Positions 12,269 through 62,195 of a stretch of DNA of 64,000 nucleotides are shown piece by piece. The stretch is from Octopus vulgaris (taxonomy: Eukaryota): contig OX597816.1 in assembly GCA_951406725.2 (NCBI GenBank), positions 62,186,001 to 62,250,000 on the forward strand, in the 5' to 3' direction. The translations under genes and the position numbers were made by a program. Within the stretch, counting starts at the first letter, position 1. Each line of letters starts with the position of its first letter. The notes under the pieces are model-generated. The model ran no database searches and was not told where the DNA came from. It saw only the letters and a program-made list of their open reading frames with translations.

Positions 12269-12551
12269 CACTATTATATCATATATTTAGAATGATGAAA
12301 TTTATCTTGTATTCAGTATGTTCACTAGTAAGAATGATAAAGGGGTTGCTGTACAAAATTTTATTGGCTAAATATCGATTGAAATATATTAACAAATTCT
12401 ATTAATAACACTGAATGTCTTCGTGACATTGCTCTTGCTGATATTTATACGTTGAACATATTAAATACTTACTAACGCGATATATTCAGTTCAACACCAC
12501 TGAATAGGTCTTGGTAGATGTTTATCCTACGTATCTGTATATATAAAAGGC

Positions 12552-12601
<50 letters not shown>

Positions 12602-13008
12602 TACGTACGTGAATGTTATTTATTCACGTCCACATGTCGCTCCAATTTTAGGAGGACATTCGTCATGATCTTAGCTGCATTTTCGTCAACTTATTATTCA
12701 CAGAGGCACCAGCGAATAGCAGTAAAAATATTTTTTCAGCCAAAACTTTTAACAATTTTCAAGTCGGAGAAATTACCATTGTTTGCAAACACGAGTTAAG
12801 TCCCCTTCGAGCGACGAGTAAGTTTTTGTTAAGACTTTGGTTGTTGTTTCTTTCCATCGAGGAAAAAAGTGTTTTGTTGATATACGGGCAACACTGACGC
12901 ACACACACAAACATGTATGCGTTCAAAAAACATGTATGCAATAGGTGTACGTACGTATGTGTGTGTTGCCCATATATACATACATACACACATACATACA
13001 TACATACA

Positions 13009-13081
<73 letters not shown>

Positions 13082-13086
<5 letters not shown>

Positions 13087-14040
13087 ATAATGAGGGAGAT
13101 AAATTAATATTAATTTTAATATCAATTTAAAACCAGTAGTCCAGCATACAAAAATCTGAGAAATCAGAGAAAATTCTAATATATGTGTATATTGGCAGGG
13201 CTTACTGCTAGGGAGTCGGCCGTATGCTAGAAATAGACCATCAACGATCAAACTACAAGGAAATTCTCTAGAGGAAAAATACAGCGAACACCAGAACTAA
13301 CTTTGTATTTTTCGTCTAGAGAATTTCCTTGTAGTTTGATCGTTGATGGTCTATTTCTAGCATACGGCCGACTCCCTAGCAGTCTTGCCCTGCCAATATA
13401 CACATATATTAGAATTTTCTCTGATTTCTCAGATTTTTGTATGCTGGACTACTGGTTTTAAATTGATATTAAAATTAATATTAATTTATCTCCCTCATTA
13501 TTAAATATTGAAATAAATACGTTCTCTAGTACAAAGCACCGACCGCAGTGAATTATTTACTGCAGCCCTTCGCCTCAGAAATTTATTAGCGCGCCAGAAC
13601 CAAGACATTTGAAATTTTATCACTGGTGTAATCGGTAAAGCTACACACGTGTCTGTACTGGCACGAAAGCTGGGGTTAGCTTTTCAGTTTACATCAAAAT
13701 GAACGGATGCACTGAAGAAGCACGGACATTTGAATTACGTAAATAATTCTTTTGTTAAGGCTGAAACCGAGGTATGCATTTAATTCTGTTTTTAATATAA
13801 ATTTGCATATGTCATGCCCGCCAAAGTTGGTTCTGGTGTTCGCTGTATTTTTCCTCTAGAGAATTTCCTTGTAGTTTGATCGTTGATGGTCTATTTCTAG
13901 CATACGGCCGACTCCCTAGCAGTAAGCCCTGCCAATATACACATATATTAGAATTTTCTCTGATTTCTCAGATTTTTGTATGCTGGACTACTGGTTTTAA
14001 ATTGATATTAAAATTAATATTAATTTATCTCCCTCATTAT

Positions 14041-14045
<5 letters not shown>
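13082..14045 (+). mobile_element. Hammerhead-bearing non-autonomous Penelope-like/retrozyme element with pseudo-LTR and inverted copy
   Basis: 13082-13303 is the reverse complement of 13823-14045. 13304-13506 is a direct repeat of 13844-14045 (period 540). Both outer ends abut (TA)n. No ORF. Confidence 0.85.
13707..13779 (+). ncRNA. Type I hammerhead ribozyme
   Basis: Stem I ATGCA(13707-11)/TGCAT(13775-79); CTGAAGA 13712-18; stem II AGC/GCT extended by a GAATTA/TAATTC hairpin; GAAA 13763-66; stem III ACC-GA-GGT; cleavage triplet GUA (after 13774). Confidence 0.8.
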
Positions 14046-14080
<35 letters not shown>

Positions 14081-14084
<4 letters not shown>

Positions 14085-14204
14085 ACTTTCAACGGATTTC
14101 GCCCAAATTTGACGTAGGTGTTGCTTAGTTTGGTTTGAAATAATGAACTGGATTAGCTTAATAATCCTAACTTAATCCCGGGCAAAGCCGGGTTATACTG
14201 CTAG
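14081..14204 (+). mobile_element. Non-autonomous Helitron 3' end
   Basis: Hairpin CCCGG-gcaaag-CCGGG (14177-14192) followed 8 nt later by CTAG|T (14201-14205), the canonical Helitron 3' terminus. Confidence 0.7.
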
Positions 14205-19694: not shown

Positions 19695-20520
19695 GGCGTT
19701 GGTCTCAACCCAGAACCGACAGTACATACAGGACCGATTCTGGAGGGCAACGAAACCAGCTAAGCAGACCATATGGAGTCACCACTGACGTATTCGTGCA
19801 AGGACAGTTCGCCGCCGGCTGAGATCTTTCAATCTGTCTTCTGGACCTACGGTTAGGGGCCCCATCCTCACTGAGTGTCATCGACGGGCACGTCTGCTGT
19901 GGGCTCAAAAACGTCAGAACTGGTGATATTAGCAGGGGAGGACTGTTGTCTTCTCTGAATAAAGTCGATAATAAATTTCTGTGGCAGATGGCAGAGCTAG
20001 GGTCTAGAGAAGCGGTGACTGCATGCCGATGGCTGTGTGGTAGACAGACACTCATAGGGAGAACAGAGCATCATGGTATGGGCGGGATTGCACTCAACCA
20101 GAAACTTGGACCATTGATCTTCCAAACTATCGGCCAAGGCCTGGGCAATGGAGTAACCGCTGTTCGCTACATCGACCAAGTTTTGAGACCTCACATTGTG
20201 CAATACTTTGCCCGTCATCGGAATCGCGTGTTCCAACACGACAACACTCGAGCCCATACTGCCAGGTTGACAACAGACTTCCTGCAACAGCACAACATCC
20301 AGACACTGCCATGGCCTGCTCTAAGTCCGGACTTCAATACCACAGTCCGAGGTTGACGACTGCGGCACAATTCACTGCATGTTTTAACAGACGGTGGGAT
20401 GCTATCCCCATGGCCTTCCTCAATTGTTTTGTGCATTCAATGTACTTACGATGCCCGGCGGTAATCAACGCTAACGGTAGTCACACGAGATATTGATTTC
20501 ATCTCTTTGGATTCATTCAT
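19695..20520 (+). pseudogene. Decayed Tc1-family transposase
   Basis: Frameshifted translation RTVRRRLR..GPILTECHRRARLLWAQ..VVFSE*SR..SIMVWGGI..VFQHDNTRAH..LPWPALSPDFN..VINANGSHTRY*. Confidence 0.9.
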
Positions 20521-21175: not shown

Positions 21176-22109
21176 TATCTCTATCTCTATATATACATAT
21201 ATATGTATATGTGTATCTGTCTATCCATCCACTGATTTCTATATAAGTACATATATCTGCATGTGTGTATGCGTGTATGTGTTTGTACTTATATGTATAT
21301 ATGATTTTTAACACATACAACACGGCACCTAAGCATGCAGACAGACGGAACCAGGGAAGTAATATATTCTATATTTGTTTTATTATTCTGAGCTCATGTC
21401 GTTGAATAAAATCGAATCTTGTTCAGAATTGTCGCATGTCTTATACTTTCTCCGTTTGGAATAATTCATTTTGAACTTTATCCGTTATGAACAATCGTGA
21501 CCAGTATGAGAAAAGACTAGAAATATGCGAACAAACTATTAGCTTTATTTATCTTTCTTTGACCTTTACAATCTTCGGTTATTCAACCTACGTTATATGT
21601 ATGGTTATTATTTTTGGTTTTTTGTTGTTATATTCTTACATAACAATGCTTATCCTTACATTACATAGAAATAATTCCAACGACAAGTCGTTTAACACTT
21701 GAGTTATCAATAACTTGAAGAATGAATGAATTATGTTACGCTGACGTGTCTAGGGTACTTCATTTAGAACATGAAAAAAAAAGATAGATAAAAAAGACGA
21801 ATTCTTGCAGTATATATCCGACATTATGTAAAAATGTCTACGGGATGCCTATTTTGTAGTATTTGTTAGAGCATTAAACAGTTGCAGAACTGTTATTTAA
21901 ATGTCAAGCTGCAGAGCTGCATAAGTTGCAAAATTTCTTATTGTAAAGCTGACAAAGGTACACGGTAATGATGCAACAGTGGGTTAGAAGATGAAGATGA
22001 CACTACTGCAAAGTTACAGACACACAGTCACAGACACACAGACACACACACACAGCTAAGCACACACGCACACACACACACAAAATGTATATACACATAT
22101 AGATATATC

Positions 22110-22155
<46 letters not shown>

Positions 22156-22223
22156 TACATATTTATATATATACATATATATACATATTTATACATATAT
22201 ATACATATATATATATATACACA

Positions 22224-25200
22224 AGGTCTGGTGAGATAGTCGAGATGCTTGAACGGAGATGTGTGGATATATGTTGCATGCAAGAAATAAGGTGGAGAGG
22301 AGGATCAGCTAGGTTCCTCACAGGCAAGGAACGCAGGTACAAGATTTTCTGGGCAGGTAACACTGACGGGGTTGGTGGCGTGGGTATACTTATCGCTGAG
22401 AAATGGGTAGATAAAGTAATTGAGGTAATCAGAGTAAGTGACAGAATACTTAAGATTAGATTAGTGCTTCGTCATAGTTTAGCAACCATTATATCAGCCT
22501 ATGCTCCTCAGTCGGGGCTACCCGATGGACAGAAAGACCGATTCTATGACACTCTACTGCAGACTACCTCATTGACGAACGACAGAGACCTTATCTTTGT
22601 GGCTGGTGACTTCAATGGTCACGTTGGACGACATGCTGGGGGCTTCCATGGCGTACATGGAGGCTATGGCTATGGCTCCCGCAACGAGGAGGGAACCAGG
22701 CTGCTGGAGTTCTGCGATGCAAATAATCTTATGATTTGCAACACTAACTTCAGGAAACCTACCAGCCACCTAGTCACTTACCAATCGGGCCAACATACCA
22801 GCCAAATTGACTACATCCTTACAAGGCAAAGGGAGAGATGGCTGCTTATAAATGCCAAAACCTTCCCAGGTGAAGAATGTACCCCACAACATAGACTGGT
22901 AGTTAGTGACTTTAGGATCAGGACTAGGAGGACAACCAGAAGACGACAAATATGGAGAAGAAGGATCTGGAAGCTTAAAGATCCTGCAAATGGACAGAGA
23001 TTTAGGGACATATTACTTGAAGCCTCTGACGAAGTAGAAGGGGATAGAGCATCACAGGGGGTAGAAGACAGCTGGACGTTTCTAAGGGACAACCTGCTGA
23101 GAGCCACTGACCAGATCTGTGGCTGGTGCAAAGTCCCCTCTCGACCTAGAATAACGTGGTGGTGGAACAATATTGTAGACAGGGCTATTAGAGAAAAGAG
23201 ACAGGCTTGGAAGGTCTGGAAAAATGGGGGTAGCAGGGAATTGTATCAGACTGCCAAAAGAGAAGCTAGGAGACAGGTTTATTTAGCCAGAGGGGAAGCA
23301 GATAAGAAAAAATTTGCCAATGTTCTGCGCCGTGAGGACCAAAGACTGGAGGTGTTTCGTGTTGCAAGACAGTGTGTGAGAGAGAATCGTGATGTGGTAG
23401 GAGAGAAGTGTGTTCGCATGGAAGATGGTTCACTTGCGCTAAATGAGGATGCAAAGAGAGAGGTTTGGAGATGCCACTATGAAAGGTTGTTGAATGAAGA
23501 AAATGAATGGGATAAAGAGAGTCTGCCGAATGTTGACCCAACAGAGGGACCAGCTATCCGAGTTGATAGTTCTGTGGTAGCTAAGGCAATAAGAAGCATG
23601 AAGACAGGGAAAGCCCCAGGCCCATCAGGAATCACTGCAGAGATGCTCAAAATGTCTGGTAGTGTTGGCTATAGCCTAGTCACCCATATAGTTAATCAGG
23701 TGATACACAAAGGGGTCATACCCAATGACTGGTGTAGCAGTATAATAGTCAACTGCTACAAAGGTAAAGGTGATGCCCTAGATACAAATAACTACAGAGG
23801 TATCAAGCTGTTGGACCAGGTGATGAAGGTTACGGAGAGGGTCATAGCCCAACTAATTAGAGAGAGAGTTAGTTTAGATGAGATGCAGTTTGGGTTTGTG
23901 CCAGGGAAAAGTACTACTGATGCTATATTCCTGGTAAGGCAGCTGCAGGAGAAATACCTAGCCAAAGATAAGCCCCTGTACCTGGCTTTTGTTGACATGG
24001 AGAAAGCCTTCGACAGGGTCCCCCGATCCCTTATCTGGTGGGCAATGAGAAAACTAGGGATAGATGAATGGTTAGTGAGAGCTGTGCGGGCCATGTATAG
24101 GGACGCCGCTAGTAGGGTGAGGGTTGGAAATGAGTACAGTGAAGAATTCCGGGTAGAGGTAGGGGTCCACCAAGGCTCAGTACTCAGCCCCCTCCTATTT
24201 ATCATAGTCCTCCAGGCAATAACGGAGGAATTCAAGACAGGATGCCCTTGGGAGCTCCTCTATGCTGATGACCTTGCTCTAATTGCTGAGTCGCTATCAG
24301 AACTGGAGGAGAAGTTTCAGGTGTGGAAACAAGGATTAGAATCGAAGGGCCTCAGAGTCAATCTAGCTAAAACCAAAGTCGTAATCAGTAGGAAGGTTGA
24401 CAAATCACAAACACCTTCAGGTAGATGGCCCTGCTCGATCTGTAGAAAAGGTGTAGGTAGAAACTCTATAAGATGCACCAAGTGTAAGCTATGGACACAT
24501 AAGAGATGCAGCAATGTCAAAGGAAGGCTAACTAGGAAGATGGTTTTTGTATGTGGCAGATGCTCAGGAACAATAAACACTGAAAATGCTCTGAGACCAA
24601 CTTCTGTCACTTTCCAGGGAGAAAAACTAGAAATAGTTGATAGTTTCCGTTACCTAGGTGACCAAGTCAGCAGCGGGGGCGGGTGTGCTGAAAGTGTAAC
24701 TGCTAGAGTAAGAATAGCTTGGGCAAAGTTCAGAGAGCTCTTACCTCTGCTGGTGACAAAAGGCCTCTCGCACAGAGTGAAAGGCAGACTGTATGATGCG
24801 TGTGTACGAACAGCCATGCTACATGGCAGTGAAACATGGGCCGTGACTGCTGAGGATATGCGTAAGCTCGCTAGAAATGAAGCCAGTATGCTCCGATGGA
24901 TGTGTAATGCCAGTACTCACACTCGGCAGAGTGTAAGTACCTTGAGAGAAAAGCTGGACCTAAGAAGCATCAGTTGTGGTGTGCAAGAGAGACGTTTGCG
25001 CTGGTATGGTCATGTGGCGAGAATGGATGAAGATAGTTGTGTGAAAAAGTGCCACACCCTAGCGGTTGAGGGAACCTGTGGAAGAGGCAGACCCAGGAAA
25101 ACCTGGGACGAGGTGGTGAAGCACGACCTTCGAACTTTAGGTCTCACTGAGGAAATGACTAGAGACCGAGACCTCTGGAAGTGTGCTGTGCACGAGAAGA

Positions 25201-25817
25201 CCCGGCAGGACAAGTGAGTCCACAACCCGTGGCCTTCTACATGGGAGGGAGCCAGCCTACGTATGCATACCTTCCCTTCTTGGGACACAAAACTCTACTT
25301 GTGAAGACGTGTTGAGGCAAGTGAGGATCAGAATCGAAATCGATCAATGGAAATTGCGGATGTGCTACCAGTGCCGGTGGCATGTCGAAACTCTGCTTGT
25401 GAAGACCCATTGAGGCAAGTGAGGATCAGAATCGAAATCGATCAATGGAAATTGCAGATGTGTTACCAGTGCCGGTGGCATGTAAGAGAACTTTCCGTTT
25501 CGCGACCGTTGCCAGCACCGCCCCGTTTCGTGTCCGTTGCCAGCCTCGCCTGGCCCTCGTGCCGGTGGCACATAAAAAGCACCATTCGTTCGTGGCCGTT
25601 TGCCAGCTCTGTCTGGCACCAGTGCGGGTGGCACGTAAAAAGCACCCACTACACTCACGGAGTGGTTGGCGTTAGGAAGGGCATCCAGCCGTAGAAACAC
25701 TGCCAGATTTGACTGGGCCTGATGAAGCCTTCTGGCTTCACAGACCCCAGCAGAACCGTCCAACCCATGCTAGCATGGAAAACGGACGCTAAATGATGAT
25801 GATGATGATGATGATGA
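22224..25817 (+). mobile_element. RTE-clade LINE, slightly 5'-truncated, inserted in TA-rich microsatellite
   Basis: Single long ORF, ~580-bp 3'UTR, (GAT)n tail at ~25793-25817; sharp GC contrast with the flanks. Confidence 0.95.
22245..25217 (+). CDS. LINE ORF: AP-like endonuclease + reverse transcriptase with PHD-like insertion (990 aa)
   Basis: EN motifs [28 protein letters not shown]; RT motifs [42 protein letters not shown]; C-terminal [17 protein letters not shown]. The frame is open to 22224 but lacks the first EN motif. Confidence 0.95.
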
Positions 25818-32284: not shown

Positions 32285-32635
32285 ATTATTATGGCTGCCC
32301 CCTCATTATCGAGTATGGCCATTGCACGAAGCTTAATTGTTACTGGTGCTGTGATCGAATGTGACTTTTTAGCCCAGCTAAAGATCTACAATGTCTTGTA
32401 CAGAATTGGCAACTAATACCTTTACCGGTAATAGTCGGCTGTAGTTGTAACTGGGCTTCATGTATCTTTGCATGTCGTTTAAGTCCTCCTGCCGAATTAC
32501 ACTCTCTTCCACATGCCTGACAGATATGATTAGTATGGTGTGTTATACCACCACCAGTGGCTAGGTTGTCACTCATTTGTCTCGCTTTATGACTACGAAG
32601 ATGACTCTTGAGTCCAGCTTTACTGAGGCAGGGTC

Positions 32636-32638
<3 letters not shown>
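32285..32638 (-). mobile_element. RTE (BovB-like) LINE 3' fragment encoding tandem C2H2 fingers
   Basis: RPCLSKAGLKSHLRSH / CQACGRECNSAGGLKRHAKIH / CQFCTRHCRSLAGLKSHIRSQH*, then short 3' end ATGGCCATACTCGATAATGAGGGGGCAGCC(ATA)n. Inserted in (ATAC)n. Confidence 0.75.
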
Positions 32639-32666
<28 letters not shown>

Positions 32667-32832
32667 CATACATACATACATACATACAAATAAATATACC
32701 TTGTTGATGTTGAAATTCCAATGAAGGACCTTTGGATCTAGGCTAGAAACAGGCTCTTTCTCTATTGGCAAGAAATCTCGAAATAAAACTGAACAATCAC
32801 ATACATACATATTTACACGCACATACAATAAG

Positions 32833-32990
32833 CATGAGGGACTGTATAGTAAGACGCTTGCTTCCCAAGCACATCGTTCCGAGTTCAATTCCAGTGCGTG
32901 GCGTCTTGGGTAAGTGTCTTCTCCTATGGCCTCAGACCGACCAGAGCCTTGTGAGTTTGTTTGGAAGACGGAAACTGAAAGAAGCCCATA
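32833..32990 (+). mobile_element. SINE family B head
   Basis: GAGTTCAATTCCAGTGCGTGGCGTCTTGGGTAAGTGTCTTCT...GACGGAAACTGAAAGAAGCCC. Confidence 0.8.
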
Positions 32991-33904
32991 GTAATAATAA
33001 TTAACAAGCCAGGGACGGAATTTTTCTTGTTTCCTGGTACCTTAATTGTAGAACATTTTTTTTTCAGTATCATATGAGTAAGAAAAAAAAAAAGTATCAT
33101 AAGATCTGAGACCTGACTTGAATGCTGTAATAATGCAAACTCCGCAACGGACGCCTTGTAATCAGATGGGGGCTTTAAAACGGATGATGGATTAAGAGTA
33201 CCTCCCAAGAAGGCGGAAAACTAAGATCTTACAAAGTTTCCATTTACCAAATATTTGTGACAAGGATTAGGAAGATTCGAGGCTATGGTAGCAGATCCAT
33301 GTAGTGAGATTGAATTCGAAACCAAGTAATTGTGGAGCGAGATTCTTAAACCTTGGCTGAAATACGGGAAACTAGTGAAAAGGTAAAAGAAATAGAGCAG
33401 TTGAAGGCTTTCATTAAATTCTATTTAATGGTTTCTCTTTCCTGTAATTTTTGCTGACAAGGAATAACTCATTTTATTAAAATAGAATTCAAAGATTTTA
33501 CAAATATTTTTGTTTTCTTCTTTTAAAGTAGAATTCTGATAACAATGTTTTTTGTTAAAGGTATTCAGTGATTACATTGTTACCTTGAAGATAACAAAGT
33601 TGATGCTGGCCCCGAGCCTAGAGCATTGGACTAAATCTATTACAGTATTAAGTTACTTCACTTCAATTCTGAATCCTTGTCTTTGCGGATTTGGTTTTTC
33701 CTTTCTTAGCCTAGAGCTCATTGAAATAAAACTAACCATCAAAAATGTGAATAGTCTAAAGACATTATCATTATTCAGAATAATATATTTCAGTTACGGT
33801 GGAAAAACTACAGCCGAATATCAACTATGTATATCTCCAACGTGAATAAATCTAACCACACAGATCTAATAATGCATTGGTATGTGTACGGTAAACGATA
33901 AATG

Positions 33905-34073
33905 TCGCCCTTTTCAAGCCTAACCAGGCTCGTGGGTCCGGTTTCCCGGTTTCTGTGGCGTATGTGTCCCCCATCAGCTTGACGGGACGCCAGTCCATCG
34001 CAGCGTTACTCAAGAAACAGGAAGAAAGACTGAGAGAAAGTGGTGGCGAAAGAGTACAACAGGAGTCGCCACC
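33905..34073 (-). mobile_element. SINE family C 3' part
   Basis: Reverse complement of GAGTAACGCTGCGATGGACTGGCGTCCCGTC...GAAACCGGGAAACCGG. Confidence 0.8.
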
Positions 34074-34490
34074 ACTTTTATGTGTCCAAGCATATGTGCT
34101 GCTTCTTTTAGTTTTCGTATTTTCCAGTCTATTATTTCTCTGTCTATTATTTTAACTTCATCCCACAGGGGGAGGTGGTCTCCATTTTCCCATACATGAC
34201 CAGCTATACTCGATTTATCAATATTTCCTCGTGTCACAGATTTGCGATGTTCCTGTATCCTTATTTTGAAGGAGCGGCATATTTCGCCTTTGTATAACCC
34301 ACTACTGCTGCATGGGCTGGAGCACACGCAGTGTTTGGTCATATTCTCTTCTATTCGTGATTTTACTCGGAGATATTTGCAAAGTGTTGTATTACTCTTG
34401 AATACTGTCCTGATATCATATGGGCCGCATGTCTTCTGCATCTTTTCGGAGAGGCGTTTCATATAGTGTAGACAGACTGTGGAAAGTTAA
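34074..34490 (-). pseudogene. Penelope-like (Poseidon-type) GIY-YIG endonuclease fragment
   Basis: LSEKMQKTCGPYDIRTVF..CVCSSPCS..LYKGE.CRSFKIRIQEH..KSSIAGHVW..H.PLWDEVKIIDRE..RKLKEA. Confidence 0.85.
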
Positions 34491-39029: not shown

Positions 39030-40130
39030 TATTGATTTCAAATTTTGACACAGAACGAGGAAGTTCGGGGATGAGGCATGTCGATTACATCGACCTCTGT
39101 GTTCAAATGGTACGCATTTCGTCGCGCTCGAGAGGACGAAGGGCAAATCAACCTCTGCAGAATTTGAACTGATAACATTAAAGACGGACGAAATGCCTCT
39201 ATGCATTTCTACCAGCGTGCTAATGATTCTGCAAATTCGCCGCCTTAAAGGTAAAGTTTAGCTCGGCGGAATTTGAAACTAGAACGAAAAAACCAACAAT
39301 ATGATTAAGGAGTATTTTGTCCGGCGTGCTAACAATTCTTCTTTCTTTATTGCCCATAAAGGGCTAAACATAGAGGGGACAAACAAACACAGACAAGGGA
39401 ATTAAGTCGATTTCATCAACCCCAGTGCGCAACTGGTACTTAATTTATCAACTCTGAAAGGATGACAGGCAAAGTCGACCTCGGCGGAATTTGAACACAG
39501 AACTTAAAGACAGACAAAATACCTATTTCTTTATTACCCAGAAGGGACTAAACACAGAGAGGACAAACAAGGACAGACAAACGGATTAAGTCGATTATAT
39601 CGACCCCAGTACGTAACTGCTACTTATTTAATCGACCCCGAAAGGATGAAAGGCAAAGTAGACCTCGGCGGAATTTGAACTCAGAACGCAAAGACAGACG
39701 AAATACCTATTTCTATTTCTTTACTACCCACAAGGGACCAAACACAGAGGGGACAAACAAGGACAGATAAACGGATTAAGTCGATTATATCGACCCAAGT
39801 GTGTAACTGGTACTTATTTAATCGACTCCGAAAGGATGAGAGGCAAAGTCGACTTCGGCGGAATTTGAACTCAGAACGTATCGGCAGACGAAATACATAT
39901 TTCTTTACTACCCACAAGGGGCTAAACACTGAAGGGACAAACAAGGACAGACAAACCGATTAAGTCGATTACATCGACCCCGGTTCGTAACTGGTACTTA
40001 ATTTATCGATACCCGAAAGGAAGAAAGGAAAAGTCGACCACGGCGGAATTTGAACTCAGAACATAACGGCAGAAGAAATACGGCTACGCATTCCGCCCGG
40101 CGTGCTAACGTTTCTGCCAGCTCGCCGCCT
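39030..40130 (-). mobile_element. Cluster of SINE family A copies including a 4-unit head-to-tail array (39345-40130)
   Basis: Unit spacing 184, 190 and 185 bp (CGGCGGAATTTG anchor); only the rightmost unit has the 5' head. Confidence 0.9.
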
Positions 40131-47321: not shown

Positions 47322-47738
47322 TATTTCTTTACTACCCACAAGGGCTACACACAGAGGGGACAAACAAGGACAGATAAACGGATTCAGTCGATTATATCGA
47401 CCCAAGTGTTTAACTGGTACTTATTTAATCGACCTCGAAAGGATGAAAGGCAAAGTCGACCTCAGCGGAATTTGAACTCAGAACGTAGTGGCAGACGAAA
47501 TACCTATTTCTTTACTACCCACAAGGGGCTAAACACAGAGAAGACAAACAAGGACAGACAAACGGATTAAGTCGATTATATCGACCCCAGTGCGTAACTA
47601 GTACTTAATTTATCGACCCCGAAAGGATAAAAGGCATAGCCGACCTCGGCGGAATTTGAACGCAGAACGTAACGGCAGACGAAATACGGCTACGCATTTC
47701 GCCCGGCGTGCTAACGTTTCTGCCAGCTCCCCGCCTTA
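47322..47738 (-). mobile_element. SINE family A head-to-tail dimer
   Basis: 184-bp period; 18-bp TSD TCTGCCAGCTCATTTTCT (47304-21, 47742-59). Confidence 0.9.
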
Positions 47739-61614: not shown

Positions 61615-61689
61615 ACAGGAAGCCGTATTATATTTCGTGCATGCGCATTGTTTCTTTTTGATTTTGTCGACCACACAGTATAGGAGGGT

Positions 61690-62195
61690 AAGTTGGGCAC
61701 CCTCTTTGAGAAAAACAGCACCATGACGCAATTCTCCCTGTCAGAAATTTGGAAACGACATGCTGTACTGCCTGGCATACGCACCGGAATCTCCGATAGG
61801 AACATCTCAGAGTGTTTGTGTGTAGATCTTAGGACAGTGCAGACGATTCGGAAAGAGTTGGATGAGTTTAATGGTGATTACAAAGGTGGAGTGTTTACTA
61901 ATGATGGTGATGTTATGCCTCCGTTCAACTTCCCACACAGCCTCAGTCTCAACATGGAGGCCTACATCATGTGTATGGAGGAGATAGTGCTGGTTCAAGA
62001 GGGTGGCTGCAGGAAGACCCTATGTCTGGCAACAGGTCTTTGCACCATGCCACAAAAGCAGGAGAACCCAGTCATGGTTGTCAGACAATGTCTGCGACCA
62101 CATCTGGCCACCTAACTCCCCAGACTCTAAACCTCTTGATTATTATGTATGAAGCGCAGTTGAGCGAGATCCCAATAAATCTCCTTGTAACACAT
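61690..62195 (+). pseudogene. Internally deleted mariner/maT-like transposase
   Basis: HTH-like ISECLCVDLRTVQTIRKEL fused to GDVMPPF.F..RPYVWQQ..APCHKSRRTQSWL..WPPNSPD.KPLDYYV. Confidence 0.8.

Follow-up and report, generated by a model that had tools for sequence, protein, structure and literature searches.

The insert at positions 13082-14045 of a 64,000-nt stretch of Octopus vulgaris DNA (the window, to which all coordinates refer) raises the question of how a small ribozyme-bearing unit came to lie there as one full, one partial and one inverted copy, and which RNA served as the template. We consider it probable that the insert is a young, non-coding hammerhead unit of about 540 nt, which was inserted in trans by (TA)n-targeting PLE enzymes and was copied from a template with two slightly different units. 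In other respects it is a dead repeat copy of the ordinary kind, and nothing points to a host function.

Sequence comparison bears out the layout of the original prediction, in which an inverted arm, a partial copy and a full hammerhead unit follow each other between two (TA)n tracts. The left target tract (13039-13081), which prolongs a (CATA)n run from about 12971, is followed by an inverted, 5'-truncated copy on the minus strand (13082-13305), which comprises the final 224 nt of the unit, has the letters AA at the allelic site discussed below, and shows one mismatch in 224 nt to 13822-14045, at unit position 13829. This arm meets a partial direct copy (13304-13506, plus strand, 203 nt) at a head-to-head inversion joint, where the two overlap by 2 nt (TG, 13304-13305). 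The partial copy is pseudo-LTR-like and ends before the ribozyme, 69 nt short of the predicted cut position. It is 98% identical to 13844-14045, with G for C at 13313 and CTT for AA at 13384-86, and lacks 22 nt of the adjoining arm (equivalent to 13822-13843). Across a head-to-tail unit junction (13506-13507, plus strand), which recurs in public runs, it continues into a full non-coding unit (13507-14045, plus strand, 539 nt, 36.5% GC) that borders the right (TA)n tract (14046-14080). The repeat had been described as a 540-bp unit in 1.4 copies; the direct tandem stands, while its length is corrected to 539 nt and 1.38 units, the offset of the direct copies being 540 ahead of a 1-nt insertion and 539 past it. 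No second copy of the unit was found within the 64-kb window.

All three pieces end at CCCTCATTATTAAATAT, from which the outer two enter (TA)n and the inner one continues into TGAAAT. Both outer ends are the same element position and the inner end has no TA run, as was claimed before, and the optional PLE tail of 30-40 nt is absent. This fixed 3' end, the putative start of reverse transcription (14044-14047, plus strand), lies 271 nt downstream of the predicted cut and has ATAT (4 nt) in common with the target. Several hallmarks of PLE insertions are found together at the locus: a partial tandem ahead of the full unit, an adjoining inverted 5'-truncated copy that creates terminal inverted repeats, a type I hammerhead that has a weak, self-complementary helix III and precedes the genomic 3' end, and a fixed 3' end in a microsatellite target.

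The surrounding sequence is likely a non-autonomous Helitron-like element (12534-14204, plus strand) with an A^TC start, a CCCGG...CCGGG hairpin 8 nt before a CTAG^T end, and runs of (GT)n and (CATA)n/(TA)n inside it, its end features being as defined in PMC3789558. The element, of which the window holds one copy, measures about 700 bp without the insert, which likely landed in an internal microsatellite of this putative small Helitron. Elsewhere in the window, decayed transposase fragments are seen at 19823-20496 (plus strand, weak DDE_3 match) and 61684-62115 (plus strand, no match). An open frame of 1081 codons with endonuclease and RT domains and a PHD-like insert (21972-25217, plus strand) is a seemingly intact LINE ORF, which we take to be RTE-like, and a frame at 32340-33041 (minus strand) that ends in two C2H2 zinc-finger-like motifs, with Pfam matches below cut-off, is probably a LINE C-terminal remnant. 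Head-to-tail arrays of a 184-bp SINE-like unit, presumably the octopus SINE core, occupy 39342-40081 (4 copies) and 47322-47687 (2 copies; 85-89% alike). The segment 58775-59659, in which nearly pure A (about 560 nt) alternates with (AT)n, looks like a sequencing or assembly artefact.

The type I hammerhead motif of the full unit (13705-13781, plus strand) contains CTGAAGA, GAAA and GTA, with a predicted cut after 13774. Its pattern occurs once in 64 kb, with both strands scanned, and in none of 3000 dinucleotide shuffles of the unit. The core is complete; to call the motif canonical, as the original prediction did, is too strong for a helix II region of 44 nt and a helix III of 2-3 bp without an Rfam match. 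Helix III surrounds a self-complementary ACCGAGGU octamer of the dimer type, with a calculated self-duplex energy of -6.6 kcal/mol. Rfam returned no hammerhead match at the gathering score; at E ≤ 10 there were 14 matches, all below their own cut-offs and none to a hammerhead, mostly microRNA models placed on the long hairpin or on microsatellite. Dimer-dependent helix III hammerheads are the type described for animal PLEs, and cleave poorly alone (PMC4209133).

Folded as a circle, the unit is predicted to reach -127.9 kcal/mol (z = -2.8), stabler than 60 of 60 shuffles, in a structure that hides the ribozyme core and places the two truncation points on either side of the 3' strand of a strong helix (13592-13601 paired with 13829-13838). 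Family variants do not spare this predicted fold significantly, as 13 of 40 break pairs against 16.0 expected (P = 0.17), and none of the same 40 (listed of 86 variant rows) hits the ribozyme core or helix III. The proposal that the arms form a near-perfect hairpin of about 200 bp also holds (-337.8 kcal/mol), the long stem being interrupted by one G.G mismatch and a 2 × 3 internal loop. Were the locus transcribed, the arm and the partial copy would give this hairpin, which the original prediction put forward as a candidate ADAR/siRNA substrate.

The unit is non-coding: its longest sense ORF spans 80 codons, Pfam gave no match at E ≤ 10, and there is no RT or GIY-YIG ORF. We rejected the 80-codon ORF (13801-14040) as a gene, its frame being broken by family indels and without a Pfam match, and we likewise rejected the insert as an autonomous PLE, which would have an ORF with RT and a GIY-YIG endonuclease. 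The unit has the retrozyme hallmark of a non-coding, low-GC sequence (36.5%, below 45%) with one type I hammerhead motif per unit. Retrozyme activity is judged by at least two consecutive ribozyme-bearing units at a locus; the window holds one motif, the locus is not classed as an active retrozyme, and this copy alone could release no unit-length RNA or circle.

To place the insert in a family, we turned to public sequencing runs, of which 20 of 24 listed (10 studies) contain part of the unit, with a best word share of 0.51; none of the 24 listed is on record as an RNA run containing it. Four of these runs, from two organism codes, were aligned to 13507-14045 at 85% likeness: X1 and X2, probable DNA runs, and X13 and X19, probable RNA runs (the RNA label is a guess). 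The alignments comprise 995, 836, 62 and 9 contigs, respectively, and cover 30 of 30 bins in every run, at depths that do not give copy number. The head-to-tail joint from 14041 to 13507 is present in all four runs, where it has one T more than the window, in keeping with the predicted fixed unit of about 540 nt. In addition, eight X1 contigs exit at 14041 into TAAATATATA, a TA run, so that further copies share both the end position and the target, as expected for a fixed 3' end. In record 17 of X19 (573 nt), a 30-nt overlap between the two ends makes a closed loop of 543 nt, which differs from the window by 29 substitutions and 3 gaps (about 94% identity). This contig fits a circular RNA and a tandem multimer equally well, and together with the joint in four of four runs it is consistent with arrays or circles; no array with two ribozymes in a row was seen directly in the four aligned runs. 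The joint and the closed contig also uphold the claim that the predicted cut at 13774 lies mid-unit, the insert being circularly permuted relative to it. On the shared junction, the closed contig, the fixed end and the non-coding content, we conclude from sequence comparison that the unit is a fixed, multi-copy, retrozyme-like one and not a one-off join.

The same alignments gave several side observations. Loose ends in X1, X13 and X19 reveal divergent family members with different hairpin sequences at 13903-13934, which suggests subfamilies that possibly keep a stem there. Splice-like donor/acceptor pairs occur in the unit at 13772-13859, where the donor overlaps the predicted ribozyme cut, and at 13922-13971, where the CTT allele abolishes the donor (GTAAG); neither skip is listed in the two probable RNA runs, in contigs that lose rare forms. 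One X13 contig has a 64-nt skip (13656-13721), which is not interpretable. A>G changes affect 9 and 6 positions in the two probable RNA runs, compared with 6 in each DNA run, figures that do not gauge editing at the locus, as the hairpin lies outside the aligned region.

The template question turns on one allelic site. The letters CTT at 13384-86 are present in the partial copy only, the full copy and the inverted arm having AA. CTT recurs elsewhere in the family: X1 has it in 2-3 contigs and 3 loose ends, X2 in 3-4 contigs and X19 in record 17. At site 13924, most of the aligned depth in X1 and X2 has A. The depth at 13924 (33,000 in X1) is far under that of neighbouring bins, and DNA versus RNA allele frequencies were therefore left unused. 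The contigs indicate that CTT and AA are standing family alleles. One circle read repeatedly should give direct copies that are identical save for new errors, yet these differ in CTT versus AA, and it is improbable that a fresh change of three letters would reproduce an allele of the family; CTT therefore points to a second template. The two direct copies thus likely came from two template units, either in an uncleaved multimer of a mixed array or through a switch between RNAs, an argument made from one site at one locus (n = 1). Gene conversion after insertion is a possible other source of CTT, which stands here on an otherwise window-type background. As originally formulated, a circle of about 540 nt read more than once round is not supported, the direct copies carrying different family alleles. 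The second priming event on the opposite strand, invoked for the inverted arm, fares better: the arm has AA and 22 nt that are absent from the adjoining copy, and hence did not arise by a snap-back of its neighbour, biological or technical; a full template would fit this event.

From these observations we infer the following enzymes, template and order of steps. A master array of at least two units would be transcribed head to tail, and a PLE endonuclease would nick (TA)n, with reverse transcription beginning at an internal RNA site, the fixed AAAUAU that lies 271 nt past the ribozyme cut. The first cDNA would traverse a whole unit through the uncut ribozyme site, pass the family junction and halt 203 nt into a second, different unit (1.38 units), its template being an uncleaved multimer or changing by a homologous switch to another RNA. 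A nick in the opposite strand would then serve as primer for the second cDNA, begun at the same position of an AA-type template and halted after 224 nt, and the two truncated cDNA ends would join over 2 nt. A lizard PLE behaves comparably in vitro, with an internal start downstream of the hammerhead, extension on both strands and uncleaved RNA as the dominant template (PMC11167929). Its start site is not homologous to the target (PMC11167929), and therefore the ATAT match seen here need not be causal. Circles may be produced from master arrays, as in other animal retrozymes, and would be unnecessary for explaining this locus.

The main competing explanation keeps the circle, self-cleaved, ligated, primed at AAAUAU and read 1.4 times, and explains CTT by subsequent gene conversion or by a change from one circle to another. 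We regard this as unlikely, even though cleaved PLE RNA is proposed to circularise and to template more-than-unit copies (Cervera and de la Pena 2014, PMC4209133) and circular retrozyme RNAs have been shown in coral, mussel and axolotl (Cervera and de la Pena 2020, PMC7229834). The fixed unit does show a permutation with respect to the predicted cut, and a probable RNA run supplies the closed contig of 543 nt, yet a tandem multimer also yields a closed contig. The predicted circular fold, with its advantage over every shuffle, would sequester the ribozyme core; on the other hand, the helix III is of the dimer type, found in motifs that are poor at cleaving alone (PMC4209133), and cleavage is dispensable in vitro for the lizard PLE (PMC11167929). 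Against a single circle there are also the differences themselves, 2 sites in 203 nt between the direct copies (one of them a standing allele) versus 1 of 224 between the arm and the full copy.

Two further explanations do away with a separate small unit or with the insertion structure altogether. That the three pieces stem from an ordinary autonomous PLE, as 5'-truncated ends (pseudo-LTRs) which template jumps brought together at this locus, seems to us improbable. The layout is identical to that of truncated PLE insertions (PMC8557442), but the junction is not specific to this locus, being present in all four runs and under two organism codes, and in one contig the whole unit closes on itself. 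In its favour, summed depth is generally greater over the 3' part in both DNA runs, and a GIY-YIG-like remnant lies elsewhere in the window; however, past the junction, non-coding sequence leads to the ribozyme within about 200 nt, and among 24 listed of 174 loose ends none falls in 13507-13740, where an exit to an ORF would be expected. We give very little credence to the duplication and inversion being an assembly or read artefact, or a DNA-level rearrangement of one copy. Long palindromes between microsatellites are hard to assemble, as stated for PLEs (PMC8557442), and no strand-change joint is listed in the four aligned runs, none of which is from the same individual. A fold-back would nevertheless mirror the adjoining copy, whereas the arm mirrors the allele of the distal copy and includes 22 nt that its neighbour lacks; nor would a false duplication bring in a different, genuine family allele, and the junction is present in independent runs.

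Copying of a small hammerhead unit by PLE enzymes in trans from two template units is thus the reading that we prefer, and it places the locus as a retrozyme-like, non-autonomous unit inserted in PLE fashion, both the structure and the proposed mechanism being already in print. The link between retrozymes and PLEs has so far consisted, in the literature available to us, of shared ribozymes, co-occurrence and pseudo-LTR similarity. The present unit, retrozyme-like but with a PLE signature (inverted arm, partial tandem, fixed internal start and TA target), lends structural support to this link. Comparing the alleles of the partial and full copies of each insertion offers a cheap, sequence-only test of circular versus linear templates, in which the present case (n = 1) leans towards a linear or multi-template origin. 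More tentatively, and with rather less confidence than in the preferred reading, the unit could belong to a cephalopod retrozyme family that accumulates as circular RNA of about 540 nt and spreads with a TA-targeting PLE, its partial tandems recording a circle versus an uncleaved linear template. If this were true, partial tandems would provide a genome-scale test of the 2014 circle model for Penelope/retrozyme transposition.

Regarding a partner, no autonomous PLE similar to the unit was found by motif search or by eye in File S1 of Craig et al. (PMC8557442). A frame of 158 codons at 34010-34486 (minus strand) resembles a remnant of a Penelope-type GIY-YIG endonuclease, with an Atlas feature score of 0.96 to eukaryotic clusters with 12-15% GIY-YIG members; it has no convincing Pfam or PDB match and no DNA similarity to the unit. 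File S1 contains Naiad_Obim, Naiad_Ovul and Naiad_Omin and lists a (TA)n preference, as here, for Obim and Ovul. Their ends are unlike the unit by eye, save that a short CCCTCATT..AAA word stands close to the 5' start of both Obim and Ovul, and Naiads lack canonical hammerheads. The octopus Naiads are thus unsupported as the autonomous partner, their consensus ends differing by eye and the motif search being negative: seven of eight short window motifs are absent from the available supplement of PMC8557442, in which line breaks can mask matches, and the eighth occurs once in an unrelated GC-rich sequence. Pattern scans gave 0 and then 1 unrelated match in metagenomes (L002), and 1 unrelated match (L001) and then 0 in viral contigs. 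No paper on the family in cephalopods was among the literature matches listed. A 2026 repeat annotation of Octopus vulgaris reports 31 recently active PLE families and leaves ribozymes unmentioned in its main text (PMC13282606). Its repeat library, Repbase or Dfam may already contain the family.

Among known systems, PLE insertions generally have a partial tandem with an adjoining inverted 5'-truncated copy and a microsatellite bias, which is (TA)n for Naiads (Craig et al. 2021, PMC8557442) and also for two Hydra-sheet entries of the same supplement. The locus resembles EN+ PLE insertions in its pseudo-LTR tandem, its inverted 5'-truncated copy with a short overlap (PMC8557442, PMC3846280), its 3' end downstream of the ribozyme and its microsatellite target with no discernible duplication. 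Unlike these, it has no RT/GIY-YIG ORF and no 30-40-nt tail, and its partial copy ends before the ribozyme. Inverted pseudo-LTRs and mobilisation in trans were described by Arkhipova et al. in 2013 (PMC3846280), with a self-priming model from which the locus differs: here the arm does not mirror the adjoining copy as self-priming would have it. Non-autonomous PLEs with known partners exist in Chlamydomonas (PMC8557442, PMC9977147). Of these Chlamys elements, MRC1 and Chlamys-N4 are, like the unit, short and non-autonomous, with pseudo-LTRs, head-to-tail copies and microsatellite targets; unlike it, they are algal, target (C)n or (CA)n, generally have no hammerhead and have known autonomous partners.

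Compared with animal retrozymes, for which circular RNA has been shown, the locus is known from sequence alone, and with one ribozyme motif it is a monomer-type copy by the retrozyme criterion; the unit nevertheless appears to work like a derivative of a non-LTR retrozyme, at a locus that falls short of two ribozymes. The inverted arm, the fixed end and the (TA)n target are features that we did not find described in the available parts of the retrozyme papers (PMC7229834; Li et al. 2026). The unit, at 539-543 nt, is longer than the invertebrate retrozymes of 170-400 nt (PMC7229834) and within the 51-972 bp of Li et al., who consider such retrozymes to be non-autonomous PLE derivatives (bioRxiv 10.64898/2026.07.22.740005). 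Metazoan non-LTR retrozymes are, like the unit, non-coding, low in GC, arranged head to tail and multi-copy, with a type I hammerhead, and have been proposed to be non-autonomous derivatives of PLEs that move by way of circular RNA.
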